Sequence record: OZ346201.1
Strand: one strand, 5' to 3'
Length of the DNA: 64,000 nt
DNA from: a phage
Of this stretch, positions 1,719 through 59,880 are shown one piece after another. Numbering within the stretch: position 1 is the stretch's first letter; the number at the start of each line of letters is the position of its first letter. The translations under genes and the position numbers were made by a program. The notes below the pieces were generated by a model. It saw only the letters and a list, made by a program, of their open reading frames with translations, was not told the origin of the DNA and did no database searches.

Positions 1719-1730
1719 TCAGGAGATAAA

Positions 1731-2771: not shown

Positions 2772-2785
2772 ATCGGAGGACTAGC

Positions 2786-3370: not shown

Positions 3371-3381
3371 GAGGAGGTGTT

Positions 3382-3696
3382 GTGGAGTTGGATTTGGCGG
3401 CATTGTACGGTATCTGCATGGGTACCGTTGTCCCGATCTGTGTATGGGCTTTCAACCAGTGGCACACCAAATGGAAAGGCATTTCCAAGAGGTTGGATGA
3501 ACTGGAGAAAGACCTCATCTTAGTGAAAAACAGTATGGTTACAAAAGATAAACTTGATTCCGTTATCGAGACCCGGTTAAGTAAGCTAGAGGCCGATATT
3601 AACGACCTTAAGCAGGATGTCAGGACAGATGTCTCCGGTATCCGAGCTGATGTACAAAAGATTTTGCACATGCTCGTAGAGCATAGTAAAAGGTAA
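3382..3696 (+). CDS. membrane-anchored coiled-coil protein
   Basis: GTG start preceded by GAGGAGG; hydrophobic N-terminal segment followed by heptad-like charged region. Confidence 0.5.
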   Translation: MELDLAALYGICMGTVVPICVWAFNQWHTKWKGISKRLDELEKDLILVKNSMVTKDKLDSVIETRLSKLEADINDLKQDVRTDVSGIRADVQKILHMLVEHSKR

Positions 3697-3785
3697 ACAA
3701 AGGTCAGAACGGAAAGGACTCTGTTCTTGCATTTTGTTCCCTAAAGTGTTAAAATAGTCCTAAGGAATTTTCTCAGGAGAACGTG

Positions 3786-4829: not shown

Positions 4830-4840
4830 AAAGAGGGTAA

Positions 4841-5107
4841 ATGAAACTAACTCAGTTTTTATGGGGACTGGTTGCGGCATCTGATGACCCTACGAAAGTA
4901 TCCCAAACTAAGCTATGGTCGAACATAGGCATGGCGGTGATGACTGGGGTGTTTATTCATATGGGGTATAATGATACGCTTCCTGAATGGTATGCGTGGA
5001 TATACGCGCCTTCAGTAGCTTGCCCCCAGCTTATTAGCAAATTCATCTCGCTCCGGTGGGGTTGCCAGCACCCTGACCACGTTAAAAACGAAGAGCAAAA
5101 AGCTTAA
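4841..5107 (+). CDS. small membrane protein (holin-like candidate, unproven)
   Basis: 88 aa with hydrophobic segments, SD GAGGG; embedded in fibre module. Confidence 0.45.
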   Translation: MKLTQFLWGLVAASDDPTKVSQTKLWSNIGMAVMTGVFIHMGYNDTLPEWYAWIYAPSVACPQLISKFISLRWGCQHPDHVKNEEQKA

Positions 5108-5116
5108 GGAGAAATC

Positions 5117-6862: not shown

Positions 6863-6871
6863 TATATCTAA

Positions 6872-6896
6872 CCGCTCCTGACGGGGCGGTTTTCTT
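6872..6896 (+). terminator. rho-independent terminator
   Basis: CCGCTCC..GGGGCGG hairpin followed by TTTTCTT. Confidence 0.6.
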
Positions 6897-6910
6897 ATCT
6901 GGAGAACACA

Positions 6911-9900
6911 ATGCTTCCAATCCCTTTGCTAAAACTTGGTCGTCATTTCCTCGATAAGAGGGGTGGAATTAAGGAACTTGCTGTTCTGTCATACCCAATA
7001 GACAACAGTGATGGTACAAGCAACACAGTATCCTATGTAAATAGCTTGGCTATACTTTTTGATGATGGTCAGCTTAATATTACGGGCTATAACAAGTTCG
7101 GGGAGTGTCGCACTGGGGATCGTAACCCTATAAACTACCCAAGCGAAACAGCCTGGAATGTTGATCATGTGTGGAGAGCAGACCGTGCGTTTGTGATCCG
7201 GACTTTTGATAACCAGTTTTTCTACATCGGCTGCACTGCAGGTCTTATCGGATCCACTGCGGCAGGCGGTAATGATGTTTGCGTAAACGAGTGGACACCT
7301 CTTCCGGAACAGATTGTTAAAGGGTTGCACCTTGACACCCACCCAGAGCGCCTTATTGAGGTGATGGGTGGTATTAACAACACTGTCTGGGTTATTGCAG
7401 AGGCAGAAGGCACTGGCATACTTAAACTATATGGATCTGGTAACAACACCTACGGATCTTTGCATGTAGATAAAAATCAGCATGCAACCCCTGTAAAGAT
7501 TGGTGAGACATCGGAAAATCCGGAAACAGGTCCTTGGAAAAACCCAAGCATCAACTGCGAGGTGCATGACAACTCTGTTATTTTCGGTGGTCCTAGAGGC
7601 TTCTGGATTGCTGGATACGACTTTCTAAGAAATAACAGTAGAAACGACCTTGTTTGGCCTCCTGTGCAGATTACTCGTAACGATTTGAGGGGCATTCCTG
7701 CAGATGAAGAGTGGAAAGGGTTTATGTGCGGTCCTAACGGGGCAATAATTGCCACACAGAGGATGCACAAACCAAATGACCAGCAGCTTGTTAACGTATT
7801 CTACGGGCAAGACGTTTGGGGAGATGACACGTGGCGTTCCTTAAATATCACCTACACCCATGAGGTGATAATGGCTCGTGGATACGGCACAAGTGGCATT
7901 TTCTTCAATAATGGCACTAAACAGTATCGTGGATTCTCTCGCAACTTGTGTAATGATATTGGTGCACAATCTGCAAACAATAGCCCTAGGGCTAATTTTA
8001 TCCACTATCAGGCTCTTGCTACAGCTAAATATGTTGAGCAACGCCTGCCAGTTAGCTGGACAGAGAGTGTTTATTTCCAAGGCATCCACAGGGAAGGTTT
8101 CTTAGGAACCTTTACTGTTGTTAATGGCAAACTTTGGTGGTCAGGCATCCCAAGGGGGAGTTTTGCAGGATCTAACAACCTCTTTGGCGGCAGACTTAAC
8201 AGCCAAGGGTTCACAGAGATTCCGGAGAATTGGTATAAAAATGTCCCGGTAGATAGCTGGGGTATCGAAGACATCTTTGATGTCAATGGTGTGAGCAATG
8301 TTAGCAACATTTACATCGGAGATACTGTCAAGATGAAATTGAAACCTCAGCCGGAGGGTGCTACGTTCATTATTGACAAGATTGAGTTGGTAAATGCTGC
8401 AGGCACTGTTGTTACAGATGCAAACTATCAGTTCTCCACTAACTGGAACCATGGTGGTGCTAACGAAGTTGTGGTCACCCAGTATAACCGTAACATCAAC
8501 AGACGTGGTTTGTATTCTATCAAGATCACCTACCATGACAAGCATGGCACTGGAAGAACCTATACGACAAGAACTTTGAACTGGAACACTATAGTTCCTG
8601 CGTATCCGTCCAACGGCAAGTGGCATACCGTTGGTAGAAACAAGCAGTTCCATGTTAACGATACTGTATACTTTGGGCTGAATGGGACCCAGCCTGCAGT
8701 AGAAGGGGATACATCGTATATGGTCAGACTCCACAGAATGGATGCTGGATCAGTCACTTATGATGTGACCCAAGAGATCTACGATCAAAGACGTGCCACG
8801 TATGACAATATTGTAAAAACACAAGCCTTGTGGGAGTTCAATCCTAATGGCAAGGGTGGTAAAATGTTGCAGGTTAATGAGCAGAACGGAACGTCGTTGA
8901 CTGTTCACGAACACCCAGACCCTTGGCCTGATCCTGGAAAACCTCGCCCGGGAGCTCGTACACTGAAAATTGTCAGCCATGATGCAGGATATTTCGGAAT
9001 ACGCTGGGAAGCTACAGTAAGATATGTCGACGGGACAACAAACAACATAGGGATTACACTTGGCGGCACTAGTGAAGATAACTCGCTGAAAATTGCCTAC
9101 ACGCCCAGAGGTATCTCTATTGATAGTATGGATGTTGTTCGCAATGGCTACGGCGATGTGAATGTCAAAGTTACTCTTGGCGAACATCTTGGTGGGGAAA
9201 GGATCATCATGTATACCTTTGATCATGATCCACGCACCAATGGAACTTATGCAAATCAGGCATGGAGTTACCTGATAAATGCACCTGAGCCGAATACTAA
9301 AGAGTTCTACTATGGTATGAAGCGAGATGTGTGCAAGAAAACAGGAACACATGACTGGATTGCTATCTGCGTTAAAGATGAGCGCACAGCTTGGGATGAG
9401 CCTGTTAACAGATGGTTCATAGGTATTCCTACCAGAAGTGATAAGTATGTCGCAGAATATATTGTATGCATGGGCGGTACCAACCTAAACATGTGTTGGA
9501 ACGAAGATGTAAACAAATACTCTGATTATGACTATATGAGGGATTACTCTTGTAATTTGTGGTTTAACCAAACTACAGGTTACCCTCCAAGACAGGCGAG
9601 AGTAAACCCTGCAATCTTCACAGACACGCAGGTTTTCTTGACAAAACAGGCCAACGAGGTTCAGACCTTCAAGAATAAATACGCTCCTAACAAGTGGTTC
9701 TACAACTGTTACGGCGCATTTTTCTGGGGACCTGGTGAGTTACCTGGTGGGGGATCTTGCTTGAATGAGGCAACTTACGCAAGTGACTACATCATGGGGC
9801 AGGTCAAGAAGTATAAGATAATCCCCGGTCCTGAGACTTTGGGCAATGCCGTTGACCCTTATATCATCATGACTGCACTGAGATCAAACATGGATGGGAC

Positions 9901-19575: not shown

Positions 19576-19760
19576 GTCAAAAGGTATAAGGGTATAGTCG
19601 CATACTCCATCTCCTAAAAGTTTTTTACCAAATATTTGGTAAAAAACTTTTAGGAGATGGAGTATGCGACTATACCCTTATACCTTTTGACATGCACACA
19701 GATGAAAACGGGCTGGGGAATCCTTTCTACCCATCTCTGGAGCGGATAGATGATGAAGGT
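19507..19760. repeat. perfect 254-bp palindrome (two 127-bp inverted arms, no spacer)
   Basis: Right arm 19634-19760 is the exact reverse complement of left arm 19507-19633, checked block by block; centre ACCAAAT|ATTTGGT. Confidence 0.9.
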
Positions 19761-45653: not shown

Positions 45654-45966
45654 TACTTGAAAATCCCTGGCATATCAAGTGTAAGGAGGATTTCTAAAAT
45701 GGATTTCCTCCTTTTGATATTTCACCGGGCCAGATATTTTAAAATTCTTAGAAAATCAGAAAATGGATCGAAAACTAAAATGGATTTTTCAAGACAGGCA
45801 CGATAAGATGTGCTGCTCATTCTATCGTTCGCACCGTACTTTAAGTCACTATTCCAGATTTTTCCGCACATACTCTCACCCTTCTACCAGAACTTTCCCA
45901 GCTTACCTCTGACCTTTTATAACAATAAGTCCATTATTATCAGAAAGTTTCGGCACATCTCTTTCG

Positions 45967-46140
45967 GTACTCGATCTGTTTTTCATTTCAAAGACCTGAT
46001 TTTCTGAAAATTTTTCTCGATAAATTTCTTAGTACTCGATCTGTTTTTCATTTCAAAGACCTGATTTTCTGAAAATTTTTCTCGATAAATTTCTTAGTAC
46101 TCGATCTGTTTTTCGTTTTCTGAATCGGATTTTCTGGAAA
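45967..46140. repeat. tandem 65-bp direct repeats (two exact copies plus degenerate copies), iteron-like
   Basis: Unit GTACTCGATCTGTTTTTCATTTCAAAGACCTGATTTTCTGAAAATTTTTCTCGATAAATTTCTTA at 45967-46031 and 46032-46096, then diverged copies with GATTTTCTGG / AAATGGATTTT submotifs. Confidence 0.85.
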
Positions 46141-46321
46141 TCGTTCCAGCTCTCGACCTGAAATTTTTGGGGACGAAATCGATTTTTCGTTTTCAGAAAT
46201 GGATTTTTAAAATTTCTATATGGGAATATTTTATGGGATACTGTTTTATAGGAAATTGTTACGGAGGGTAATTAGCATGCTAATTAAATTTATTAAATGC
46301 GAGGAGTTCTCATTTAGAATT

Positions 46322-47251: not shown

Positions 47252-47650
47252 ATGAAAACCACTACCTTTAATTTTGATAATGCAGACTTTTCTTTTTCTG
47301 ATGTCAAGAACTGCCGCCGTGATCGTGGATTTTACAAGGCTTATAATCTGGTGGGCCTGGACGATGACAATAATTTGCACGAAGTAGCTGAGATCCGGTA
47401 TTATGCCGCCGCCAGCGGTAACACTAACTACTGCGTTTTTTGGATACACGACAACAAGAACAATAAGTACGGTTATACTGGTGGCAAGGCGAGCGGTCAC
47501 GGTTACGATAAAGCTAATGCAGCACTTGAGAGCGCATTAAATGCTATGGGGATCACTGCCAACGGCTGGATCTATGAAGAAGAGTTTTTGTCGGCACTTG
47601 CTGACCACCTGGGCTATAAAAAGCACATTGTAACATGCGCCCACGAATAA
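47252..47650 (+). CDS. hypothetical protein
   Basis: 132-aa ORF, SD AAGAGGA. Confidence 0.55.
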   Translation: MKTTTFNFDNADFSFSDVKNCRRDRGFYKAYNLVGLDDDNNLHEVAEIRYYAAASGNTNYCVFWIHDNKNNKYGYTGGKASGHGYDKANAALESALNAMGITANGWIYEEEFLSALADHLGYKKHIVTCAHE

Positions 47651-47656
47651 AAATTG

Positions 47657-47684
47657 TTGACACGCTGCAAAATTCAAGTAAACT
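47657..47684 (+). promoter_or_regulatory. sigma70-type promoter
   Basis: TTGACA-N16-TAAACT. Confidence 0.55.
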
Positions 47685-47732
47685 AGTCACAAAAGGCGGG
47701 AATGTTTCCCGCCAACACAAAGGAAAAAGATC

Positions 47733-48137
47733 ATGAATAAGAACGTACGCCGCATCATGAACGAACTGGCAAACGATGAAAAAATTATTGACATGCATTT
47801 GATCAACATTTGCCGCCGTTGTGTAACATACAACAACCGCGCCGCAAAAGCGCGTGAGATGAACGCAAAAGGCACCTTAAAGCCATTCCAGGTGGTGGTA
47901 AAGGCCATTAAAGATGTAACTAATACGGCAAACCAGGTACAGGGGAACACCAACGAGAGTACCAATATTGATCCGGCTTACATCATGAAACGGATCCGGA
48001 CCTGCAAGAACAAAGAGCAAGTGTATAATGTCATAGACTGGTTGGATTCTATGGGCGATGTGGTGTACAATAGATTCTCGGCAGCTATTGAGATCCAGCT
48101 TGACAGGTTAGACGGTAAAGTACTTAAAACTTACTAA
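47733..48137 (+). CDS. hypothetical protein
   Basis: 134-aa ORF, SD AAGGAAA. Confidence 0.55.
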   Translation: MNKNVRRIMNELANDEKIIDMHLINICRRCVTYNNRAAKAREMNAKGTLKPFQVVVKAIKDVTNTANQVQGNTNESTNIDPAYIMKRIRTCKNKEQVYNVIDWLDSMGDVVYNRFSAAIEIQLDRLDGKVLKTY

Positions 48138-48138
48138 A

Positions 48139-48185
48139 TTTATTTTTAGATGGCCTTGACTCCAGGGCCATCAATAAAGTAAATT
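48139..48185 (+). repeat. repeated intergenic element, copy 1 (promoter-like hairpin)
   Basis: TTATTTTTAGATGGCCTTGACTCCAGGGCCATCAATAAAGTAAATT; stem ATGGCC/GGCCAT with TTGACT in loop. Confidence 0.8.
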
Positions 48186-48217
48186 AATCTCAGCTAAGCG
48201 AAAAAGGGGGCTTTAAG

Positions 48218-48337
48218 ATGAGCACTACACGCCAATACACAAAGGTAACTATTATCGCCTGCGTTGTCGGTTACATCCTGGCGCAAATGTTAATGAGTAG
48301 CGCTAACAGTTTTGCAAAATTTTTCTTAAATTTTTAA
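48218..48337 (+). CDS. small hydrophobic peptide (39 aa)
   Basis: ATG after AAAAGGGGG; single predicted TM segment. Confidence 0.35.
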   Translation: MSTTRQYTKVTIIACVVGYILAQMLMSSANSFAKFFLNF

Positions 48338-48365
48338 TTGACAAGCTAACTTAGATTGATATACT
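48338..48365 (+). promoter_or_regulatory. sigma70-type promoter
   Basis: TTGACA-N16-TATACT. Confidence 0.65.
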
Positions 48366-48416
48366 TAAACACGTAAACGGGAAAACTTCCCAGAACACAC
48401 AAAAGGAGAAAACACC

Positions 48417-48758
48417 ATGACTACTATGGCCGCCGCAGAAAAAGCTATTCAGATCGCCGCACTGAAAAAACAGATCGCAGACCTTGAGAACAAGATCGAT
48501 AACTTTGAAATCGACGAGGACAAGTACGACGAAAACTATGATGAATGGTTAGACGAGATCTACGGCGAAATTATGATCGGAAACATTTCTTTTCTTCCGT
48601 CGCGTATCCTCAAGGAGCTAGATCCTATCGCTTACCGCTGCGGATTTAGCGACTACATCGACAGCCTGGATATTGAGGACGATGAAGAATACCAGGAATT
48701 ACAGACAGAGTTAGAAGAAGCAAAAGAAGAGCTTGCAGAACTGGAAGAAAACGAGTAA
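48417..48758 (+). CDS. highly acidic coiled-coil protein (DNA-mimic candidate)
   Basis: 113 aa with dense Asp/Glu runs (..DIEDDEEYQELQTELEEAKEELAELEENE*). Confidence 0.55.
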   Translation: MTTMAAAEKAIQIAALKKQIADLENKIDNFEIDEDKYDENYDEWLDEIYGEIMIGNISFLPSRILKELDPIAYRCGFSDYIDSLDIEDDEEYQELQTELEEAKEELAELEENE

Positions 48759-48760
48759 GA

Positions 48761-48805
48761 TTATTTTTAGATGGCCTTGACTCCAGGGCCATCAATAAAG
48801 TAAAC
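48761..48805 (+). repeat. repeated intergenic element, copy 2
   Basis: Identical core to copy 1: TTATTTTTAGATGGCCTTGACTCCAGGGCCATCAATAAAGTAAA. Confidence 0.8.
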
Positions 48806-48847
48806 TTTATACTGTTAACACTGAACTAATGCATAGGAGTTAAAACC

Positions 48848-49093
48848 ATGGCAGCACTAATCACCAAATATTATGCCCCTACCAACACCAAAAGCGCCCG
48901 TATCATGGTAAAAGGCTTCGGACGTAAAAAGGTGTACACCTGGGATTATGCCTTAGACACGGAAGACAACTACACCAACGCGATGACCGATTTTATTAAT
49001 GATCTGAACACGCGGATCTTGACAAATTATAAAATTACCGATATTGCCTATATAGGGGAAGGCGGGATCTGTTTTGTCGGTATCGTCAAATAA
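48848..49093 (+). CDS. hypothetical small protein
   Basis: 81-aa ORF. Confidence 0.5.
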   Translation: MAALITKYYAPTNTKSARIMVKGFGRKKVYTWDYALDTEDNYTNAMTDFINDLNTRILTNYKITDIAYIGEGGICFVGIVK

Positions 49094-49140
49094 GCTGTTT
49101 TTTCGGTGGTCCTGGTAGCAGGGCCATCTATAAAGATAGT
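49094..49140 (+). repeat. repeated intergenic element, diverged copy
   Basis: ..GGTGGTCCTGGTAGCAGGGCCATCTATAAAGATAGTTTA.. keeps CAGGGCCATC-ATAAAG core. Confidence 0.5.
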
Positions 49141-49168
49141 TTATCAATACAATGAAAGGAGAAAGTAC

Positions 49169-49522
49169 ATGATCAGCGGGGCAAGTTTTATTATTGGCGC
49201 TATTGCTACGGCTTTAATTGTAAACAAGATCCAATCTAAAAACGAAAAAGATAGCAACGCCCTTACAGAATACCCGTTTTGGGTATTCAACGACAATGAA
49301 GACTATATTATCAAGTACAAGAATGAGAAGGGCGACCAGGTAACACCGCGACCGATCCCGGCTTACAAGATGCAAGAAACACTATACCGCCTAAAGGCTG
49401 GAGGCGCAAAAATCGTAGACTTTTGGGGATACGATCACACAGATCAGGAAGTTATAAAGCGCCGTATCCGGGCTATTCAGGCCAATATTGAAGTTAGCAA
49501 GGGGGGAATATATGAAGATTAA
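49169..49522 (+). CDS. membrane-anchored protein
   Basis: ATG 49169 with AAAGGAGAAAG upstream; N-terminal TM helix. Confidence 0.5.
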   Translation: MISGASFIIGAIATALIVNKIQSKNEKDSNALTEYPFWVFNDNEDYIIKYKNEKGDQVTPRPIPAYKMQETLYRLKAGGAKIVDFWGYDHTDQEVIKRRIRAIQANIEVSKGGIYED

Positions 49523-49709
49523 TTTTGAGAAGATTGTAAAGCGATCTCATGCTTCCGAAGAGCTGCCGGAACGCCGCCAGCGCAACAATAAACTGAATAA
49601 GCCAAAAAGATTTGGGAAGATCTGGCGGAATCATTATGATCGCAAATTACCGGGCCTGCTTTTGGAACGTGAACGACAGGCGGAACGATACCGCCACAAA
49701 GGCAAATAA
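49512..49709 (+). CDS. small basic protein
   Basis: 65 aa, Arg/Lys-rich; ATG 49512. Confidence 0.45.
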   Translation: MKINFEKIVKRSHASEELPERRQRNNKLNKPKRFGKIWRNHYDRKLPGLLLERERQAERYRHKGK

Positions 49710-49717
49710 CAACCAAC

Positions 49718-49745
49718 GCCCCGCCATTGTGCGGGGCTTTTTATT
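49718..49745 (+). terminator. rho-independent terminator
   Basis: GCCCCGC-CATTGT-GCGGGGC hairpin followed by TTTTTATTT. Confidence 0.85.
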
Positions 49746-49890
49746 TCTATCCTACGAATAGCGCCCCTGGTTGGCCCTGTAAGCGCCAAAAAGGCCCCAC
49801 CTATGCAATCGCCCACCTTTAACCTGAAAACATCGCTTAGGGCCGTTTTATGGCGTTAAAAATATCATTGACAGTGATTTTATTTAAAGC

Positions 49891-49918
49891 TTGACATCTT
49901 AAACAGGTTAGCTATACT
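49891..49918 (+). promoter_or_regulatory. sigma70-type promoter
   Basis: TTGACA-N16-TATACT; second TTGACA 23 nt upstream. Confidence 0.65.
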
Positions 49919-49952
49919 AACCACATCAAAGAGAGAGAAAGGAGTAAACGCC

Positions 49953-50213
49953 ATGCGTAAATTAAAAAATTTTGATAAAGTTGATGTTGTCCTGAATAAT
50001 TTTTACTACTGCAACAACAAGGCCATTTGGTGGCGTGATAGTTCCACCGATAAAGTCAAGGCGCGCTTTCTCCAGGGGCACTGGCAAGGCCGCCCAGTGA
50101 TTAAAATCATGGGGCAATTGGTAGCGTTTAAAAATTGCCGCCGTGTTGATGACGTTGAAGAGATCTTGAATATTTTACGCCACAATAATTTAAAAAATAG
50201 TGTTGACAAGTAA
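49953..50213 (+). CDS. hypothetical small protein
   Basis: 86 aa, SD AAAGGAG. Confidence 0.5.
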   Translation: MRKLKNFDKVDVVLNNFYYCNNKAIWWRDSSTDKVKARFLQGHWQGRPVIKIMGQLVAFKNCRRVDDVEEILNILRHNNLKNSVDK

Positions 50214-50230
50214 ATCTCAATAAGTATACT
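50203..50230 (+). promoter_or_regulatory. sigma70-type promoter
   Basis: AAAATAGTG-TTGACA-N16-TATACT; overlaps stop of upstream gene. Confidence 0.65.
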
Positions 50231-50287
50231 TAAGCACACAGGCGGGAAGTTTTCCCGCCACTAACAAAGAAAATAGGAGAAAATATC

Positions 50288-50911
50288 ATGACCACCGTTA
50301 ACATTACCACAGGTTGCAATTTATCTTTCGACGTGCTGACCGACGAACAAAAAGAAAAAGCTGTTGAAATGGTCCGCGAAAGAGAAGAACACAGCGGGGA
50401 TAACTTTTTTGCAGAAAGTGTAATTGAATACTATAAAGAATATGTTTTTCCAGAGTACGGGCTTGAAGATACCAAGGTACAGTGGTCCGGCTTTTGGTGT
50501 CAAGGCGACGGCGCATCAATTAGCGCTGAAAATGTAAACTTAGAAAAATTCTTGCGTAAGGTTAAAGCGCTTACAAAATTTCGCTCAATTAGACACTTGT
50601 TCGGCACAATGCACGATGGCGAACTATCAGCCAGCGTTGAACGTATCCCGTTTAGCCATTATCATCACGAAAACACAATAGGCGGGTGCATCGATACCAA
50701 CTGGCTAGACCTGACCACCAAGCAAGAGGATAAAATTGAAGAGCTGGAAGAGCTGATCACCGAGACGGTACGGGAGCTATCCCGCAAGGTTTACGTAGAC
50801 CTGGAGCAGGCCTATCTTGAACAATTCACTACCGAAAACCTGATCGGCCTTATCGAGGCCAATGATTGGCGGTTTGATGTGGATGAGTATGGCGAGATGA
50901 CTTTTTCATAA
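50288..50911 (+). CDS. acidic hypothetical protein
   Basis: 207 aa, Glu/Asp-rich, SD AGGAGA. Confidence 0.55.
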   Translation: MTTVNITTGCNLSFDVLTDEQKEKAVEMVREREEHSGDNFFAESVIEYYKEYVFPEYGLEDTKVQWSGFWCQGDGASISAENVNLEKFLRKVKALTKFRSIRHLFGTMHDGELSASVERIPFSHYHHENTIGGCIDTNWLDLTTKQEDKIEELEELITETVRELSRKVYVDLEQAYLEQFTTENLIGLIEANDWRFDVDEYGEMTFS

Positions 50912-50918
50912 ATAAAGT

Positions 50919-50946
50919 GTTGCAATAACCTAAAAACCTGCTATAT
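50919..50946 (+). promoter_or_regulatory. sigma70-type promoter (weaker -35)
   Basis: TTGCAA-N16-TATATT. Confidence 0.45.
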
Positions 50947-51000
50947 TAAAACTCAAGGGGCAAGACGTTTGCCCCCACACAAAACAAAGAGGAAAACATC

Positions 51001-51381
51001 ATGAAAAACACTACTAAAGCTATTGACACCGTTATGTTTAACCTGGTTACCTTTCGCGAGGATATGAAAGATCTTCCACGTGAAACAGTGTGCGATCACA
51101 TTGAAAACTATCGCAAACTAATCAAAGAGTTGCCTTTAAAACGTGACCAGTATGCGGCTAACGCCATGCTTAATGCCATGATCAAAAAGATGATTCAGTG
51201 TGATTTAACTCTGGCCTATGACTATGCGGGTGGTCGTTTTGCAGTATACAATCAGCCCGTGCCCGGTATGGGCACCACCGAAGAATTGCACGCGCTCAAT
51301 CTAAAACAAGACGTATGGGATAACATGCCCCGCGTGGTGGTGTGGGCAGAAAGCGGAAAGATTTACGGCGATAATTTTTAA
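51001..51381 (+). CDS. hypothetical protein
   Basis: 126-aa ORF, SD AAGAGGA. Confidence 0.55.
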   Translation: MKNTTKAIDTVMFNLVTFREDMKDLPRETVCDHIENYRKLIKELPLKRDQYAANAMLNAMIKKMIQCDLTLAYDYAGGRFAVYNQPVPGMGTTEELHALNLKQDVWDNMPRVVVWAESGKIYGDNF

Positions 51382-51390
51382 TCAGGTAAC

Positions 51391-51417
51391 AGGCGGCATA
51401 TTTGCCGCCTTATTGTT
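51391..51417 (+). terminator. hairpin terminator
   Basis: AGGCGGCA-TATT-TGCCGCCT followed by TATTGTT. Confidence 0.55.
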
Positions 51418-51445
51418 AAACAGAGTTGCAAAAGAGGTACATAGA

Positions 51446-51817
51446 ATGGAATTTATTATTTTGGCTGTAGTAGTTGCCTTGTTCAACGCCTGGATCGCTG
51501 GCAAGATGGGTAGATCCGCCTTTTTATGGTTTATTATATCTATTTTCCTGGGGGTGGTTGCAACTATTGTACTTGTTATCCTTGCAATTGTTGACAAGGG
51601 GAATAATAGAAAGGGTAAAGTATTTTCAGACCTGTACGACGCTCAAACGTTTGTCAACGCCTATTATAGTGATCTTCCAGTCTCCCTACGCTGCAGCCTG
51701 GCACAACAAGTTTTCGATGAGGCTAAAACCAGAGATCAAGCCCATGAGATATGTTTAACTGAGGCGGATCGCCTATTTGAGAGGAATAGAAAATATGTGG
51801 GCCAACCGTTTAAATAA
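51446..51817 (+). CDS. membrane protein (two predicted TM helices)
   Basis: MEFIILAVVVALFNAWIAG.. and FLWFIISIFLGVVATIVLVILAIV; ATG 51446 with AAGAGG upstream. Confidence 0.5.
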   Translation: MEFIILAVVVALFNAWIAGKMGRSAFLWFIISIFLGVVATIVLVILAIVDKGNNRKGKVFSDLYDAQTFVNAYYSDLPVSLRCSLAQQVFDEAKTRDQAHEICLTEADRLFERNRKYVGQPFK

Positions 51818-52040
51818 TGCCACGTTAATTAATCCCTTTAGTGAAGATTTGAAGCCAGCCGCCTGGCGTGATGGATTCAATAACGAACGCTTTATTTTCA
51901 AGCCTGATCTTGAGGAATTTTATAACAATGGATCGAACAACAGCGGAGATAATTTTTCTTGGGATGTGCGTGGTGATGGTACTCCTGGGGGCCATTGTAA
52001 ACCACGTCACTACTACCAGGAGGAAAGAGGGAGACGATGA
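51795..52040 (+). CDS. hypothetical small protein
   Basis: ATG 51795 with GAGAGGAA upstream; overlaps end of previous ORF. Confidence 0.4.
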   Translation: MWANRLNNATLINPFSEDLKPAAWRDGFNNERFIFKPDLEEFYNNGSNNSGDNFSWDVRGDGTPGGHCKPRHYYQEERGRR

Positions 52041-52156
52041 CAACCAAGGATAAGCCCCGTACCGATAAGGCGCGCCGGGTTATGGTATGGCTTGAGATCA
52101 TCGCCCTTGAAATATTGCTAGGCGTAGGGATGTACTTTATCGCTGTAAGTAACTAA
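52037..52156 (+). CDS. small hydrophobic peptide (39 aa)
   Basis: ATGA overlap with upstream ORF; C-terminal TM segment; followed by terminator. Confidence 0.35.
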   Translation: MTTKDKPRTDKARRVMVWLEIIALEILLGVGMYFIAVSN

Positions 52157-52160
52157 GAGC

Positions 52161-52188
52161 GGCCCCCGATCATGGGGGCCTATCTTTT
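52161..52188 (+). terminator. rho-independent terminator
   Basis: GGCCCCC-GATCAT-GGGGGCC followed by TATCTTTT. Confidence 0.75.
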
Positions 52189-52209
52189 AAAAAATTTTTC
52201 TTCCGGGGT

Positions 52210-52238
52210 GTTGCAATCCGGTCCGGAATGTGGATAAT
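52210..52238 (+). promoter_or_regulatory. sigma70-type promoter (weaker -35)
   Basis: TTGCAA-N16/17-GATAAT. Confidence 0.45.
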
Positions 52239-52294
52239 AACAATCAACGGGGAGCTAATCCCCACCACCACAAAAACCAGAAAGGAGAAACAAA

Positions 52295-52495
52295 ATGAGC
52301 AACAATATCCGCGTTATTAACTTCAAAAAAGAAGAAAAAATTGCCGTGCTGATTGACGGTCAAGAAATCTTCAAGGGCGACTATGAAGATCATCAAACGG
52401 CGATTAGTATCACTCGCGTGATTGGTTATCATAATTTCTACCCCCAAGGCGCTGAGGCAGCAGTTAAACGAATCAAAGAGATTGTAGGCCTGTAA
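52295..52495 (+). CDS. hypothetical small protein
   Basis: 66 aa, SD AAAGGAGAAA. Confidence 0.5.
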   Translation: MSNNIRVINFKKEEKIAVLIDGQEIFKGDYEDHQTAISITRVIGYHNFYPQGAEAAVKRIKEIVGL

Positions 52496-52548
52496 AATTT
52501 ATTTTTAGATGGCCTTGACTTCAGGGCCATCGATAAAGTAAATTTAAA
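52496..52548 (+). repeat. repeated intergenic element, copy 3
   Basis: AATTTATTTTTAGATGGCCTTGACTTCAGGGCCATCGATAAAGTAAATTT; two substitutions relative to copies 1 and 2. Confidence 0.8.
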
Positions 52549-52588
52549 CCCTGTTAAAATACCACGCAGTTAACAAGGAGTGATAGAC

Positions 52589-52888
52589 ATGTTTATCCAG
52601 GCTAATAATCTTTATTTCTTTGATGGTCAGATCGTAGATGGTGTGGAAGTGGAGATCACCGGGTGCCCTGGCGGTCAGGCTATGACTTTTCGGAATAATG
52701 CCTTTGATGATTCTCATATCGTTATGAGAATGGAAGTTACGAAGCTGGACGACAAGAAAACACTTATTGACTATTCTGTGAAAGATCATCCAGACTACCG
52801 CATGATCCATGGTGATTTGTGCATTGTTGACCGTGACAAGGTGGGCGGCATTGTGATCGCTATTGTGAACGATGTTTTCTCAAACTAA
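52589..52888 (+). CDS. hypothetical protein
   Basis: ATG 52589 with AAGGAG upstream. Confidence 0.5.
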   Translation: MFIQANNLYFFDGQIVDGVEVEITGCPGGQAMTFRNNAFDDSHIVMRMEVTKLDDKKTLIDYSVKDHPDYRMIHGDLCIVDRDKVGGIVIAIVNDVFSN

Positions 52889-52905
52889 TTTCAGCAGGCG
52901 ATTTT

Positions 52906-53256
52906 ATGAAAGTCAAACTATATTACCTTAATGAGCTTAACCCCCTTGCCCAGGTCCGCGCCCTAGCTAATACCTTGATTTGTGAGAAATCTGTATATTG
53001 TGTTGAGCTTAACGCCATGCGTGAACGTCTCAAAGGTGGTTACTTTGACATCCATGCTGCAATCAACGGCCTGAATATGGAATTTATACGCTTACGTAAC
53101 AGCCGCCGGAATCTGGCAAGAATGGAACAAGATCCGGCCCACCTTCGTAAGCTGGTTATTGAAAATCATCTGATGTTTAATGCCGAGGGTGATTATTACC
53201 ATTTTCACCGCAAACGCTGGTACCGTGGCGGCAATACAGGCAAGAATGCAAAATAA
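52906..53256 (+). CDS. hypothetical protein
   Basis: 116-aa ORF; followed by AGGCCC..GGGCCT hairpin and a strong terminator. Confidence 0.5.
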   Translation: MKVKLYYLNELNPLAQVRALANTLICEKSVYCVELNAMRERLKGGYFDIHAAINGLNMEFIRLRNSRRNLARMEQDPAHLRKLVIENHLMFNAEGDYYHFHRKRWYRGGNTGKNAK

Positions 53257-53291
53257 GGCCCCTAGCAGGGCCTGCAGCAATATAATCACAT

Positions 53292-53326
53292 AAAGGCCAT
53301 GCGGTTGCATGGCCTTTATTATTTTG
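53292..53326 (+). terminator. rho-independent terminator
   Basis: AAAGGCCATGC-GGTT-GCATGGCCTTT hairpin followed by ATTATTTT. Confidence 0.85.
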
Positions 53327-53373
53327 GCGTTACAACGGCATACGGGGCGCTTAAAAAATTTTTAAAGAAGTAC

Positions 53374-53401
53374 TTGCATCATTCCCGACAATATGGATAA
53401 T
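53374..53401 (+). promoter_or_regulatory. sigma70-type promoter (weaker)
   Basis: TTGCAT-N16-GATAAT. Confidence 0.4.
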
Positions 53402-53458
53402 AAGAGTTGTCGAGGGGGAGGCCCCCAATCGTTGACCAGATAGATAGGAGTTAAAATC

Positions 53459-53743
53459 ATGGCTATTGTTACCGCTGGCGATGTAGTAGAAATGGAAGCA
53501 AAATACTTAAAAGCGGGTATGCACATCCTACGGAATGATCAAGAGCTATTATTAACGATGGTTGACTATAATCACGGCCAGGATTATCCAAGCATCGACT
53601 ACTTTTTTGAGTATGTTGATGAAGAGTTGAAAGAGGATGAGGCCTATTGCGGTGAGTTCTGCAACTTCTTTTGTCCTGATGAGGTTGTAAAGGTTATTTA
53701 TCAACCTGGCGTAGCTTTCCCGCTGCACGCTATCAATAAATAA
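53459..53743 (+). CDS. hypothetical acidic small protein
   Basis: 94 aa; followed by ACCTGGCGGGGCC-GAAAA-GGCCCC hairpin. Confidence 0.5.
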   Translation: MAIVTAGDVVEMEAKYLKAGMHILRNDQELLLTMVDYNHGQDYPSIDYFFEYVDEELKEDEAYCGEFCNFFCPDEVVKVIYQPGVAFPLHAINK

Positions 53744-53798
53744 ACCTGGCGGGGCCGAAAAGGCCCCCAATTATGAAAATAAAGAGAGGCAAATCATC

Positions 53799-54032
53799 AT
53801 GATGGAACAAATTAAACGCGCCGAGGCTATTAATGGCAACGTGATCTATTTTGTCAGCAAAAACGAAAAAGGCGTACCATATGCGGCAGTAATAGTACAA
53901 CCTGACGGCGATTATTGGTTTACTGTGTACGGCGCTTATTCTTTTGGGCGTCCAGTGCATGATAAAATTTTGAAAGTAGCGAACCCTACCGGGAAGAATA
54001 TCACAGCAGAAAAATTTTTTGAAAATAGTTGA
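53799..54032 (+). CDS. hypothetical small protein
   Basis: 77 aa; stop codon TGA embedded in the -35 TTGACA of the next promoter. Confidence 0.5.
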   Translation: MMEQIKRAEAINGNVIYFVSKNEKGVPYAAVIVQPDGDYWFTVYGAYSFGRPVHDKILKVANPTGKNITAEKFFENS

Positions 54033-54056
54033 CATGACCATATAAGACTGTAATAT
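54029..54056 (+). promoter_or_regulatory. sigma70-type promoter
   Basis: AAAATAGT-TGACA-N16-TAATAT. Confidence 0.6.
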
Positions 54057-54107
54057 ATAAATCAAAGGGGGCAACGAACCCCACCAACTACAAAGAGGAT
54101 AAAAATC

Positions 54108-54287
54108 ATGGCTATTATTGCAAAGACTGAGATCATAGGCTTAGATTCTATTCTCCTCGCATATGAGGAAGCTATAGAAATGTATGTGGTTTCCTATGGT
54201 GAGTATATCCGTGAATATAAATCTATTGATCTGGCTTTTGAATGTTATATCCGCCAGGTTAATAAAGCGTACGATGATTATCGTTAA
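54108..54287 (+). CDS. hypothetical small protein (59 aa)
   Basis: ATG after AAAGAGGATAAAAATC; just below track cut-off. Confidence 0.45.
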   Translation: MAIIAKTEIIGLDSILLAYEEAIEMYVVSYGEYIREYKSIDLAFECYIRQVNKAYDDYR

Positions 54288-54294
54288 AATAGTT

Positions 54295-54323
54295 TGACAA
54301 CAGCCATCTTACAAAGCATAATA
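54295..54323 (+). promoter_or_regulatory. sigma70-type promoter
   Basis: AAAATAGT-TTGACA-N17-CATAAT. Confidence 0.6.
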
Positions 54324-54374
54324 CATAAGGCGGTGGAATGGTCCGCCACCTGGAACAAAGAAGAGGTAAACACC

Positions 54375-54620
54375 ATGAAAAGCAATAAAGGTTATAACGG
54401 TTACAAAAACAAAACTCATTGGAATGTAAGCCTTTGGATTAATAACGATGAGTCATTGTACCGGTTGGCCCAAGGCTTTATTAACGCCAATGCTAATCGT
54501 AATGATGCGGCGCGGGATATGATGCTTTTTCTGGAGCTAACCGGACAAGATAAGACCCTGGACGGCTTCAAGTACAGCACTACGGCGATCCGTGCCGCGA
54601 TGGTTGGAATGAAACACTAA
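54375..54620 (+). CDS. hypothetical small protein
   Basis: ATG 54375 with AAGAGGTAAA upstream; track start 54294 would overlap the promoter. Confidence 0.5.
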   Translation: MKSNKGYNGYKNKTHWNVSLWINNDESLYRLAQGFINANANRNDAARDMMLFLELTGQDKTLDGFKYSTTAIRAAMVGMKH

Positions 54621-54697
54621 AAGCACATAGCTGCCTTACCCTGGGGCTGTGGTAGCGGCCCCATGAATAAGGTTACTAACAGAAGAGAATAAACACC

Positions 54698-54802
54698 ATG
54701 AAACAGAAATTAATCGATGCAGTGATCTTGGTTATTGCCCTGGGTATTGGCCTGATTGCAACCATGTCTAATATGATCTTGTCTTCCAACGGTATCGGGT
54801 GA
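54698..54802 (+). CDS. small hydrophobic peptide (34 aa)
   Basis: Single TM-like segment; weak SD. Confidence 0.3.
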   Translation: MKQKLIDAVILVIALGIGLIATMSNMILSSNGIG

Positions 54803-54811
54803 GGTTGGCAA

Positions 54812-55027
54812 ATGATCACTAACAAAACAGGCAAAACGGAATTTTTACGCAACTTACAGATCGGCAAGCCTGAGATCTGGTACTGCACTAAAACACCGCG
54901 TGACGAAATGAAAGACTTCACCGCCACGCTGCAACGGGTAAAGATATCTATCACGCAGAAAAAGGCCTTACTAGTGGTGGAAGGGGAGATCCCCCAAACC
55001 GTTGTTATAGTTGATCGTACAGCATAG
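54812..55027 (+). CDS. hypothetical small protein
   Basis: 71-aa ORF. Confidence 0.45.
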   Translation: MITNKTGKTEFLRNLQIGKPEIWYCTKTPRDEMKDFTATLQRVKISITQKKALLVVEGEIPQTVVIVDRTA

Positions 55028-55118
55028 TTTAATTTATACAGATACCTGAAAATTAACCAACAAAGCATAAACAGGCGGTTACCGCCGCCTTAAACGTAGC
55101 AGAAAGAGGATAGGCACA

Positions 55119-55403
55119 ATGAAAAAGATGATCGCAGTGGTTACCCTGGTTGTTGGACTTAATGCGCCTGTAATGGCTAAAGAGCTGGCAAAAGAGGTTA
55201 ATCTAACGGATATTCATGCCGTCAATCAAATCGGGGTTACTTATCGCTTATGCCTTGCCGCTAAAACTTTTAAGGACGGCACAACAGAGTACTACGGATT
55301 CGAGGGTATCCGGTGCGGTGAGCTTGCTCGCGACCTTAAGGAAGATCCAGACCTGGAGGATCTGCCCATAACCGTGAACGGGAAAACTTACGTGAACCGT
55401 TAA
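55119..55403 (+). CDS. secreted small protein (signal peptide)
   Basis: N-terminus MKKMIAVVTLVVGLNAPVMA followed by polar mature region; SD AAAGAGGA. Confidence 0.55.
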   Translation: MKKMIAVVTLVVGLNAPVMAKELAKEVNLTDIHAVNQIGVTYRLCLAAKTFKDGTTEYYGFEGIRCGELARDLKEDPDLEDLPITVNGKTYVNR

Positions 55404-55405
55404 CC

Positions 55406-55540
55406 ATGAGAAAGATAATTATTACCATGGGGATCGTGGCGGCAATGTTGGCGATCTTTCCCTTTATGGTTAGGTATGTGCTGATTAATGTTGTCCTGGT
55501 AGTCAGCGATCTGGTGTTATATATTAACTCATTGTTTTAG
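55406..55540 (+). CDS. small hydrophobic peptide (44 aa)
   Basis: Overlaps stop of upstream gene; two hydrophobic stretches; no clear SD. Confidence 0.3.
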   Translation: MRKIIITMGIVAAMLAIFPFMVRYVLINVVLVVSDLVLYINSLF

Positions 55541-55548
55541 GCGCGATA

Positions 55549-55740
55549 ATGACAGCGGAAGAAGTTAAAAAAGTACTGGCGGTACTGCGTTATCATAATC
55601 ATTGCAAGGTGAAGAATGATCCTGATTATCTTGATTCATCCCTTGAAGAGGATACACTACAAGCCATAAGCAACATGCAAGAATTGCTTAAGCGTATGAC
55701 AGAGAAAAACCGACCGGACTACATAGGGGGTAAAATATGA
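55549..55740 (+). CDS. hypothetical small protein
   Basis: 63-aa ORF. Confidence 0.45.
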   Translation: MTAEEVKKVLAVLRYHNHCKVKNDPDYLDSSLEEDTLQAISNMQELLKRMTEKNRPDYIGGKI

Positions 55741-56048
55741 TCGCTATTACGCCAACCGTTTTAGATTGGTATCGGCAACGCATAGCGCCTCCGCTGGCTA
55801 TCTTCAAAGATGCGGAAGCAAAACAACGCCGGATCTCAATACATGAGATCATCAACCTTAACGCTGGAGGCACACCATACCGCCCAGGACCTGGCCGTGA
55901 GATGGACAATACATTGGCGATCCTGAAGATACGCCGTAAACGGTCCTCCCTTACGCTGGATTCATTACACACAATGCAGTCTCCGTTCCAGGTGACTGGG
56001 AAACGGATCGCCAGGTCCTGGACAAAGGCCAATGACCGGACCGTATAA
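55737..56048 (+). CDS. hypothetical protein
   Basis: 103-aa ORF, ATGA overlap. Confidence 0.5.
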   Translation: MIAITPTVLDWYRQRIAPPLAIFKDAEAKQRRISIHEIINLNAGGTPYRPGPGREMDNTLAILKIRRKRSSLTLDSLHTMQSPFQVTGKRIARSWTKANDRTV

Positions 56049-56183
56049 ATAAAAAGTGTTTTGGTACTGATTTTGGGGTTGACTTGTTCGGCCCCTTTTG
56101 CTATTCTTATTAAACGGGCGGCACTTGGGAACAGGGGGAGACAATCACCAGGCCTGCCTGTCATATAAGAACTATAAAAACCG

Positions 56184-57479: not shown

Positions 57480-59880
57480 TCCCCCTACCATAAACGGCCC
57501 TACCTGGCAAGTGGAATAATTGACGAGCCATCAATCCCACACACTGTACAAATATACATGTAAAATAACTATTGCATAACCTTTCATTGTGTGGTAGCGG
57601 TGCTATTTTTTACCTGTTTTCCTTCCAAAATTGCACGTAATGCAGCTATTGCACAAAATTTAACCTGATGCACATCTCCAATATCCTGTCAACAACTAAA
57701 AATCTTTATAAGTCATACACTTACACAGCATCGAAAGCGTGTTCTACGCGAAAAATCGAGTATAACTATAGCCGCCAGATCTCAGAATTCACGTACGCAC
57801 GCCATTCTATAGCCTGCAAAGTATTTATTCCAACCACAGAATAACGGAATAGTCAATACCTGAATAAAATAATTATTCGTTTAAACTGCATAACATAAAT
57901 CAGCTCAGGTGTCAACATTTTTCGTAAACAGTCTGAAATTGTCACTGTGAGTTATCATAAACAGAGAAATCTTTAGTCGTATAATGTTTACTGTACGTTA
58001 CTATACTGACTGGAATCATTAGATGACTAATAGAAAGATAAGAAATAATTAACAATACAATTATTTTACCTGTAACAATAAGACAACTATGCAAACGAAT
58101 GGCATGGCGCGACGGAGTCGCGACATAATATAAAAGCAGTAACCATCACCCCCGTGATGGTTTGTCTGCAATCTATTAATCAGATCATAGTTGCCTTGTA
58201 TTCAGTTAATCATGACATAATAAGCAAGGCAACTATAGATCTGCTAATAGTTGCCCTGCTTTTATATTATGTCATATATTATTAACTTGTTAATTGTTAA
58301 CTTGCTAATTGTTTTCATGCAAACGAATGTCATGGCTTATCCTATCTGTGTAAACAGTTAAGGTGTAAACTATCCAGGCGTAAACAGTCTATGCGGGAAC
58401 AATCTATACGTGAACAGTGAAACATGAAATAATAACAGTCGTTATTGTGTCGAAAGTGTATAAGGTGTCAGACAAGTTTTTCTCCTCTTTGTCAAGTGCT
58501 GCATGAAAAATTTACAAGCTTGTATGGTAGCATTTTTGCGGCCCTGTTTACATTCAGCGATGTATGTATAATCCTTGTTGTGTGGGCGTTTAGACGTCTA
58601 GACGGTCAGAAGTCTGCAGGTTAATACCTAATCTATCGGCTGCTAACTATATCCCACACAAATAGTAAGAAATATAATTGTTATGTGCGTAAACAGTAAC
58701 TCATGTTATCAATCCCTGTATGTATCGCCAGTGGTGCGCATAATGGGTATTATGTTAAATTGCCCGTAATGATAACTATTCTCACAATGATAGGTATTCT
58801 CATTCACTCCCACAAGATAGGTTGCAAATGTTGTGCCACTGTGTGAACGGCCTAACCTATTAATTTGCCTCACTGCCTCGATATTTGAGAATTGTTATAA
58901 GAATGAGAAGTATTCCCATTTCGTCCGCCTGGCAGCACTCCAGTCGCTACCGCTCATGACAGGGCAGAACTAGACCCTCTTCAGATATTTCTGGCTGACT
59001 CTTCAGGTCTGTGTGGGAAAAGCCAACCTCTCCGGCGGCGGGGAGGGGGTCAATTAAAAAAAATTACGTGGTGCATGAAGCGCTCTTCAGGTAAGGCATG
59101 TGTTATGGGATGAAACCCTCTTCAGGCAATGATATTTGTGGGTGTGATATTTGCTGGAAAGCCAGATATGACGGGACTCCTGGCGGGGCAGGGGTAGTAC
59201 AGACAGGGAAAATATGGGGGATGTAGTTGGGGAAATTGATCAGACAGGTAGAGTATGGAATATGTTACAAGTATGTTAAATAGGGAGGATGAATATCTGC
59301 AGGATTTGTGTGTAAAATCAAAGACTTAAGTGGTGTTGTGGTATTTTCTATAAATAATTCAAGTTTAATAGGTAATATTTGTCTCTATCCACTTTGTGTG
59401 GTAAACAGATTCAGATGAAATTGGTTTACAAGTGTATACATAATATACAAATTAAAGATACAAGAAACCCCCCTCCCCCTTCGGCTACCATTCACCTTTT
59501 CCTCTGACTGGTACTTAAACACTTATTCAGACTCTTCAGGTTATCACCCATATATCATATGGCAGTGACTGGTGTCCTCCGGCCCCTCTTTCGTCACCCG
59601 TCCGCTTCGCCATGCTAATGCCATAGCCAATGGTTCGGTTGTTCACTCTGTTCACTCAGGTGTATCTCCATACCCCTTCAAACCGAAGAGACAAAATCCT
59701 AATTACTCGGTAAAAGAAAAGAGAAGAACTTAATTTTATCAGGATAGGCAAGAATGTCAAGGCATGACTGCTCACTAAACAAGCAAACAGTCATGTGTGG
59801 AAGGTAAGTGATTGTGGTGGTGGGAAATTTAGTTGAAAGATGTGTTATAGGTGCGCTTCCAGCACTTTGGCCGGGCAGCT
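57480..59880. other. 2.4-kb ORF-free, repeat-rich region between convergent gene blocks (candidate origin / packaging / control region)
   Basis: No ORF of 60 aa or more on either strand; six CTCTTCAG(G) copies (58.97-60.18 kb); about nine GTAAACAG-like copies (57.9-59.4 kb); inverted TAGTTGCC and GACATAATA motifs at 58.1-58.3 kb. Confidence 0.6.

Follow-up and report, generated by a model that had tools for sequence, protein, structure and literature searches.

Repeated intercistronic hairpins in the early region of an rV5-like phage as candidate RNase III processing signals

The phage genome of sequence record OZ346201.1 contains a 50-nt sequence that recurs between small genes of the early region. 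What does this element do? The stretch of 64,000 nucleotides analysed here (the window) holds four copies, located between positions 48136 and 52545. Public records conflict over these same 50 nt: copies 3 and 4 are labelled 'terminator' in the Murica record, and copies 2 and 4 are labelled 'promoter' in that of Gotham. The initial annotation of the window left three options, namely a promoter embedded in a hairpin, an RNA processing site and a binding site for a regulator. The analysis described below establishes, close to certainly, that the conserved feature is a fold of the plus-strand RNA. By analogy with phage T7, the four hairpins are probably signals for single-cut processing by RNase III and for mRNA stabilization, a reading held with moderate confidence. 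RNase III sites in the early mRNA of phages are classical; their possible occurrence in an rV5-like phage appears to be new. These phages are widely isolated and are candidates for therapy and biocontrol. To our knowledge, their early transcription is known solely from promoter and terminator predictions.

The repeated element and its plus-strand fold

Region 47500-54000 of the window is 94-97% identical to more than 110 rV5-like Escherichia coli myoviruses (Vequintavirus). The early region, from 46 to 58 kb, consists of small plus-strand genes without known function, with many strong sigma-70 promoters (TTGACA N16 TATACT) and few intrinsic terminators. All copies of the element lie on the coding strand of this region. 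A repeat search groups them into a 50-nt family with members at 48136, 48757, 49092 and 52495, which have identities of 100, 94, 68 and 96%, respectively. The 24-nt core GATGGCCTTGACTCCAGGGCCATC occurs at 48149, 48770 and 52508 with 0, 0 and 1 mismatch and was matched in 0 of 100 shuffled sequences, which bears out the three near-identical copies first reported. Two diverged copies had been proposed in addition. That at 49092-49142 is a true member, scoring 71.7 bits with covariance model R1, which was built only from 21 copies of this phage group. The other (53258-53280, or 53256-53273 by its hairpin) has no model R1 match and is not a member of the family; what lies there is an independent GC hairpin of 6 bp, adjacent to the terminator at 53290-53319 and terminator-like on the minus strand.

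Each copy separates two small genes. Copy 1 (48136..48186, plus strand; -22.7 kcal/mol, z -5.8; 79.3 bits with model R1) lies between a gene for a protein of 134 amino acids (aa; 47733-48137) and a 39-aa gene (48218-48337). Copy 2 (48757..48807, plus strand; -20.7 kcal/mol, z -5.5; 79.5 bits) is found between a 113-aa gene (48417-48758) and an 81-aa gene (48848-49093). The same 81-aa gene is followed by the diverged copy 3 (49092..49142, plus strand; -25.8 kcal/mol, z -6.5), beyond which lies a 117-aa gene (49169-49522). Copy 4 (52495..52545, plus strand; -24.4 kcal/mol, z -8.75; 78.3 bits) occupies the interval between a 66-aa gene (52295-52495) and a 99-aa gene (52589-52888). The initial annotation placed the copies right after a stop codon, and this holds for all four: every copy begins at the upstream TAA (48135-37, 48756-58, 49091-93 and 52493-95) or 1 nt past it. 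The end of the hairpin is 27-44 nt from the next start codon.

The structure is larger than first described. A stem of 6-7 GC-rich base pairs had been recognized, which is the middle part only of the fold. Folding and RNAalifold show that the whole 50 nt forms one interrupted hairpin of 21 bp on the plus strand, with energies of -21 to -26 kcal/mol and z scores of -5.5 to -8.7. The lower stem comprises 10-11 A-U and G-U pairs, formed by AAAUUUAUUUU with AAAGUAAAUUU. An internal loop follows, to which the 5' strand contributes 2 nt and the 3' strand 3 nt in all copies, and above it stands a GC-rich upper stem of 10 bp closed by a tetraloop. In copy 1 these parts correspond to 48137-48146/48176-48185 (lower stem), TA/AAT (internal loop), 48149-48158/48163-48172 (upper stem) and ACTC (loop). 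RNAalifold, run without a supplied structure, returns the same fold with 20 pairs. Folding of the minus strand is much poorer (-14.5 and -9.2 kcal/mol). In copy 3 the fold is preserved through wobble and compensatory changes, while the TTGACT of the other copies is replaced by CTGGTA and a U-G pair near the loop, in what is termed the distal box below, by C-G.

The window, six GenBank relatives and two IMG/VR contigs together supplied 21 distinct copies in which conservation of this fold was examined. Across this set 96.6% of pair cells are paired, compared with 37-57% when the partners are slid by 1-3 columns. Compensatory double changes occur at four pairs of the lower stem: columns 7/53 (GC 8, AU 7, GU 4), columns 8/52 (UA 15, CG 2), columns 10/50 (UA 15, AU 2, GU 2, GC 1) and columns 11/49 (AU 15, UA 5). 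In the upper stem pairing is 100%, with wobble changes alone at the four pairs that vary. The U-G pair at columns 12/48 is invariant and the loop is free to vary. The 3' half, CAGGGCCATC.ATAAAG, is invariant in 21/21 copies. Scores with model R1 are 72-80 bits on the plus strand versus 31-44 on the minus strand. The G-U pairs and this strand asymmetry point to a single-stranded molecule of the plus strand as what is conserved, that is, mRNA.

The element is restricted in distribution. With filters off, model R1 detects only these four copies across the whole window, and no further copy in the other 76 kb of a sister genome. The search of related genomes suggested in the initial annotation finds the element present: BLAST detects it at three places per genome in 121 records. 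Three rather than four places are seen because the diverged copy falls below the sensitivity of BLAST. A scan of IMG/VR with an exact 17-nt pattern recovers two Vequintavirus contigs; other matches to this pattern miss the element's 5' half and are apparently fortuitous. A scan of 44-60 kb against Rfam (E up to 10) yields no relevant family, the best overlap being rhtB at 23.1 bits against a cut-off of 55 (E=4.6). The Gotham record (about 1140-1190) has a 5-nt deletion (GGGCC) in copy 1 that destroys the upper stem; it may be genuine or may reflect faulty assembly at a hairpin. The deletion breaks hairpin and promoter spacing alike and thus cannot separate an RNA structure from a promoter.

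Resemblance to the RNase III sites of T7

In the early region of T7, host RNA polymerase makes a precursor of ~7 kb that RNase III cuts at five sites, with R1.1 cut at a single bond (PMC4858673). Substrates of the enzyme contain about two helical turns, or about 20 bp; internal loops confine the cut to one strand, and the 3' hairpin that remains shields the RNA from exonucleases (PMC1540722). When folded, the T7 sites R0.3, R1 and R1.1 all consist of a lower stem, an internal loop of 1-2 x 3 nt, an upper stem of 9-10 bp and a tetraloop. In R0.5 the internal loop is the same, but the upper stem is longer and the terminal loop has 5 nt, and R1.3 is a 13-bp stem from which the asymmetric loop is absent. 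The upper stem in R0.5 and R1.3 is thus 11-13 bp, and loops of the T7 early sites measure 3-5 nt.

The present element follows this plan. It too lies between cistrons and combines a lower stem with an asymmetric loop, a 10-bp upper stem and a tetraloop, and, as at T7 R1, the upstream stop codon abuts the stem. What we take to be the cut in R0.3, R1 and R1.1 falls right past the 3-nt loop, between UAU and GAU or between AAU and AGG. The element has NAU followed by AAAG at this place, so that the NAU before the predicted cut is shared. The two systems also differ. The present lower stem is longer (10-11 bp) and nearly pure A/U, and the copies are almost identical to one another. The phage itself is a 137-kb myovirus, and neither a phage RNA polymerase nor a 0.7 kinase was found here.

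Model R1 was also run on T7 and a T7-like phage. Applied to positions 400-7000 of T7, the model returns R0.3, R1.1 and R1 as the top three matches of 13.2 kb, each full-length and in register. In a Klebsiella T7-like phage it finds a hairpin (29.9 bits, E=5e-5) just upstream of the RNA polymerase gene, the identity of the polymerase being confirmed by Pfam. This hairpin starts at the stop codon of a 367-aa open reading frame (ORF), its location is that of T7 R1, and it shares UAAACUUUAU with copy 2.

Recognition positions were mapped by the rules described for uR1.1 (PMC1540722) and by one-to-one alignment to R1.1. A double helix of ~20 bp is present in every copy, made up of 10-11 plus 10 pairs. 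In the distal box the pair U26-A33 occurs in 21/21 sequences and U25-G34 in 15/21, including copies 1, 2 and 4; copy 3 has C-G. This UA/UG box is canonical and is located one pair under the tetraloop, like that of R1.1. The proximal box of uR1.1 accepts no G-C or C-G at position 2, and the preferred pairs at positions 1-3 are G-C, A-U and A-U (PMC1540722). Position 2 of the element is A-U, or G-U in copy 3. A substrate of the R1.1 type has an 11-bp helix from the scissile bond to the loop. With the cut placed as predicted, the helix between bond and loop consists of 10 pairs plus a non-canonical A-A, C-U or A-G at proximal-box position 4. Natural R1.1 has the same arrangement at position 4, with a U-C pair. 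Judged from these positions, copies 1, 2 and 4 look like good RNase III substrates. The alignment register and the cut positions in the T7 folds put the predicted scissile bond of copy 1, between NAU and AAAG, at 48175..48176 on the plus strand. The equivalent bonds predicted in the same way lie between 48796 and 48797 (copy 2), 49131 and 49132 (copy 3), and 52534 and 52535 (copy 4). Cleavage by RNase III, the exact site of the cut and a stabilizing effect are all proposed by analogy with the T7 sites.

A mechanism can be outlined for the RNase III reading. (i) Host RNA polymerase would start at promoters P47657, P48338 and P52211 and make polycistronic early mRNA. The promoter upstream of copy 1 (47657..47684) and that upstream of copies 2 and 3 (48338-48365) are strong sigma-70 promoters on the plus strand with 10-11/12 matches and a 16-nt spacer in the promoter scan. 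The promoter upstream of copy 4 (52211-52238, plus strand; TTGCAA N16 GATAAT) scores 9/12, equal to the boxes inside the element. (ii) The polymerase would read through the hairpins because no U-tract follows them. Transcription would then run across the copies from the upstream promoter to the downstream intrinsic terminator, located on the plus strand at 49718..49737 for the operon of copies 2 and 3 and at 53290-53319 for that of copy 4 (terminator scan). (iii) The transcript would form about two helical turns of double-stranded RNA, interrupted by the internal loop of 2x3 nt. (iv) Host RNase III would bind the hairpin and cut one strand once, on the 3' side of the internal loop. (v) A 3' stem-loop barring 3'-5' exonucleases would stay with the upstream cistron, and the one downstream would be released as a separate mRNA. 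It may be speculated that a ribosome terminating at the stop codon, which lies at the base of the lower stem, would melt the stem, and that translation might in this way modulate cutting.

If the hairpins are RNase III sites, the true mRNA units of the early region are set by them. The textbook T7 case of early polycistronic transcripts processed by host RNase III would then extend to a large myovirus, and the element would offer a simple testable example of a processing signal that abuts a stop codon. Several points weigh against this reading. The T7 cut coordinates are presumably those of Dunn & Studier 1983, and have as their one support the hairpins found at those positions. Taken by themselves, the scores of the T7 sites with model R1 are low (11-13 bits, E about 1), and the argument is one of rank and register. 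Pairs at proximal-box positions 1 (U-A) and 3 (G-C) are off the uR1.1 optimum, and copy 3, with its distal-box C-G and its G-U at position 2, may be a poor substrate. As the 21 sequences are mostly close relatives or paralogues, the number of independent events behind the covariation is small. Protection of the mRNA by an uncut hairpin of this type is also conceivable. Literature searches found neither a transcriptome nor other experimental data for any rV5-like phage, and gave no account of RNase III sites in rV5-like or Seuratvirus phages. The rV5 genome paper and its supplementary table of promoters and terminators do not list the element.

A further hairpin touches on this subject. At 54632-54674 on the plus strand, 11 nt past the stop of ORF 54294-54620, the hairpin scan identifies an intercistronic hairpin of different sequence and without a model R1 match. 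Its lower stem has 6 bp and its upper stem 10 bp, with a small internal loop between them and a tetraloop on top. With this RNase III-type geometry it is a possible fifth site.

Alternative readings of the element

A promoter within the hairpin is the reading closest to the Gotham record, in which PhagePromoter annotates copies 2 and 4. The model for such a composite is provided by the PeSLs (promoter-early stem-loops) of T4-like phages, in which a promoter of consensus strength is joined to a stem-loop shown to terminate (PMC2839356, PMC4122927). Copies 1, 2 and 4 would then be early sigma-70 promoters, with a hairpin that attenuates upstream transcription, a proposal that we consider unlikely. 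Its parts, a UP-like T-tract, TTGACT, an 18-nt spacer and TAAATT or TAAACT, would serve the next gene, and this assignment carries the same low probability. The initial annotation had noted TTGACT with a TAAATT box some 18 nt on, and the promoter scan calls this sigma-70-like pattern on the plus strand, at 9/12, in copy 1 (48156..48185), copy 2 (48777-48806, with TAAACT) and copy 4 (52515-52544). The strong promoter at 47657 likewise has TAAACT as its -10 box. As described for PeSLs (PMC2839356), the element directly follows a stop codon and has an AT-rich tract on its upstream side. Further likenesses to PeSLs are the recurrence of intergenic modules of ~50-100 bp where small early genes are numerous, the presence of G-T pairs in the stem-loop, and the position of copies at the borders of cassette indels between close relatives. 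The scan result is, however, near chance, as the 9/12 class numbers 40 in 12 kb versus 25.9 expected from shuffled sequence, and real local promoters score 10-11/12 with spacers of 16-17 nt. Copy 3 contains neither box: TTGACT-N18-TAAATT is absent, CTGGTA stands at the place of the -35 box, and there is no good -10 box, yet every pair is kept. The -10-like box varies at one position only (T/C, column 53), and this position covaries with column 7, to which it is paired. The fold of copy 3 without boxes and this covarying position show that the conserved feature is the RNA fold. Related hairpins in Seuratvirus phages are without promoter boxes, and the downstream genes need no promoter of their own. 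Compared with PeSLs, which belong to the hyperplastic regions of T4-like phages, the element of this Vequintavirus has a weak and dispensable promoter match, and what is conserved is a two-helix structure of RNase III type. Weak promoter activity of copies 1, 2 and 4 is possible.

The evidence for RNA structure would serve an uncut hairpin as well as an RNase III site. Such a hairpin might be a REP-like barrier to exonucleases, a site of pausing or attenuation, or a binding site for RNase III or a phage protein without cleavage, and would tune the expression of neighbouring cistrons. Some substrates do bind RNase III and yet escape cleavage (PMC1540722), proximal-box positions 1 and 3 are not optimal, and the invariance of the 3' half exceeds the needs of pairing. 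The 2x3 loop, the 10-bp upper stem and the UA/UG box are, on the other hand, the geometry of cleaved sites, and a plain exonuclease barrier requires no second helix and no internal loop. The chance that the hairpins are left uncut is small. A function at the level of DNA is far less probable. The inverted repeat GATGGCC/GGCCATC could be read as a repressor operator overlapping a promoter, or, since copies flank a 621-bp indel in natural isolates, as a recombination site of a small mobile element. But substitutions preserve G-U pairing on the plus strand only and break the symmetry of the minus strand and the duplex, neither target-site duplications nor an associated recombinase is present, and homologous recombination between 50-nt repeats suffices for the indel. 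The least probable reading, and hardly a tenable one, is an intrinsic terminator. The Murica record carries 45-nt 'terminator' features on copies 3 and 4, and the upper stem is GC-rich. The run of T lies upstream of the hairpin on both strands, however, with an A-rich tract after it. As the initial annotation observed, the T-tract of an intrinsic terminator is missing: none of the copies has a T-run after it, and the terminator scan picks up 0/4 copies but does call the true terminators at 49718, 51391, 52161 and 53290. The downstream genes are also without another promoter. Among the three options first listed, RNA processing is therefore favoured by the plus-strand fold, the T7 geometry and the UA/UG box; the embedded promoter is weakened by near-chance scores and by copy 3, and nothing supports a regulator site on DNA.

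Related hairpins, cassette exchange and other features

Hairpins related to the element occur in the Seuratvirus siphoviruses Skure, CAjan and SD04 and in IMG/VR contigs, with 16-29 bits in model R1. They start at stop codons on the coding strand, and a homologue of the 81-aa gene (47% identity) has one on either side, just as the 81-aa gene lies between copies 2 and 3 in the window. The architecture is like that of the present element, and the 3' strand AAUAAGU..AACU resembles AAUAAAGUAAACU; the upper-stem sequence differs and the loops are of 5 nt. No description of these Seuratvirus hairpins was found in the literature searched. Vequintavirus and Seuratvirus share no neighbouring gene besides the 81-aa gene homologue. 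Homologues of the 81-aa protein (48848-49093) are found in early regions of Klebsiella T7-like phages and in Seuratvirus and Nonagvirus phages. In tblastn searches with this protein there is a gap between identities of at least 90% (Vequintavirus) and below 60% (other phage groups), with no relatives of intermediate divergence. Among 43 distant IMG/VR loci with a homologue of the gene, a related hairpin is seen only in Seuratvirus-like contigs, and forty loci are without one. Because of this restriction, the hairpin is not a universal companion of the 81-aa gene.

The copies also border a natural change in gene content. In phiWec189, ime, ECP26 (MK883717) and one IMG/VR contig, exactly 48184-48757 is missing, with the 39-aa gene, a promoter and the 113-aa gene. 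Carriers of this natural 621-bp indel have one hybrid copy of the element, flanked on the left as copy 1 is and on the right as copy 2 is. Either homologous exchange takes place at the copies, therefore, or they mark the two ends of a cassette that was inserted. Their near-identity would let them serve as exchange sites at which gene cassettes are added or removed, and explains recurrent gene-content polymorphism in Vequintavirus. Deletions in rV5_ev146 relative to the window (47724-48229 and 49660-56142) end in microhomologies of 15-16 nt at ribosome-binding sites, not in the element.

A wider role is suggested by these comparisons. Three hints come from the natural indel exactly between copies 1 and 2, from the location of the 81-aa gene between related hairpins in Vequintavirus and Seuratvirus with differing neighbours, and from the similarity 3' of the hairpin, which extends to the next Shine-Dalgarno sequence (AAUGAAAGGAG). 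Tentatively, early-gene cassettes may move among T7-like podoviruses, Seuratvirus siphoviruses and rV5-like myoviruses, with the hairpins as their common borders and as an RNA-level counterpart of PeSLs. It is conceivable, with similar reserve, that the hairpin insulates an imported cistron at the RNA level, gives it 3' protection and supplies homology for exchange. The copies suggest that hairpins of this type help early genes to move between phage families.

The last gene in the operon of copies 2 and 3 (49512-49709) encodes a basic protein of 65 aa that matches PF08200, the T7 gene 1.1 protein (Pfam, E=2.3e-10). Apart from this homologue, Pfam yielded no function for the genes flanking the copies.

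Modules that combine a sigma-70 promoter with a GC-rich hairpin where the transcript is predicted to begin and, after it, a Shine-Dalgarno sequence are found at 47657-47714, 48338-48392, 50203-50259, 50920-50976, 52211-52268 and 53373-53430. Promoter scores are 10-11/12 at 47657, 48338 and 50203, and the rest are 9/12 or uncalled. These repeated modules resemble the PeSLs of T4-like phages and are closer to them than the present element is.

Other repeats are distributed more widely in the window. At 19600-19667 there is a perfect palindrome, which folds into a 32-bp stem closed by 4 nt (-52.6 kcal/mol, z -17.8); it might serve as a terminator in both directions or as an origin-like site. An ORF-poor stretch at 58173-58274 contains two long inverted repeats that overlap (stems of ~26 bp, -28 kcal/mol), and a 65-bp unit is repeated at 45957-46207 in 3-4 tandem copies, two of which are identical. 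Finally, 17 GenBank records (MG0656xx) titled 'Campylobacter phage' are ~94% identical to the present rV5-like phage, and their name or host assignment looks doubtful.

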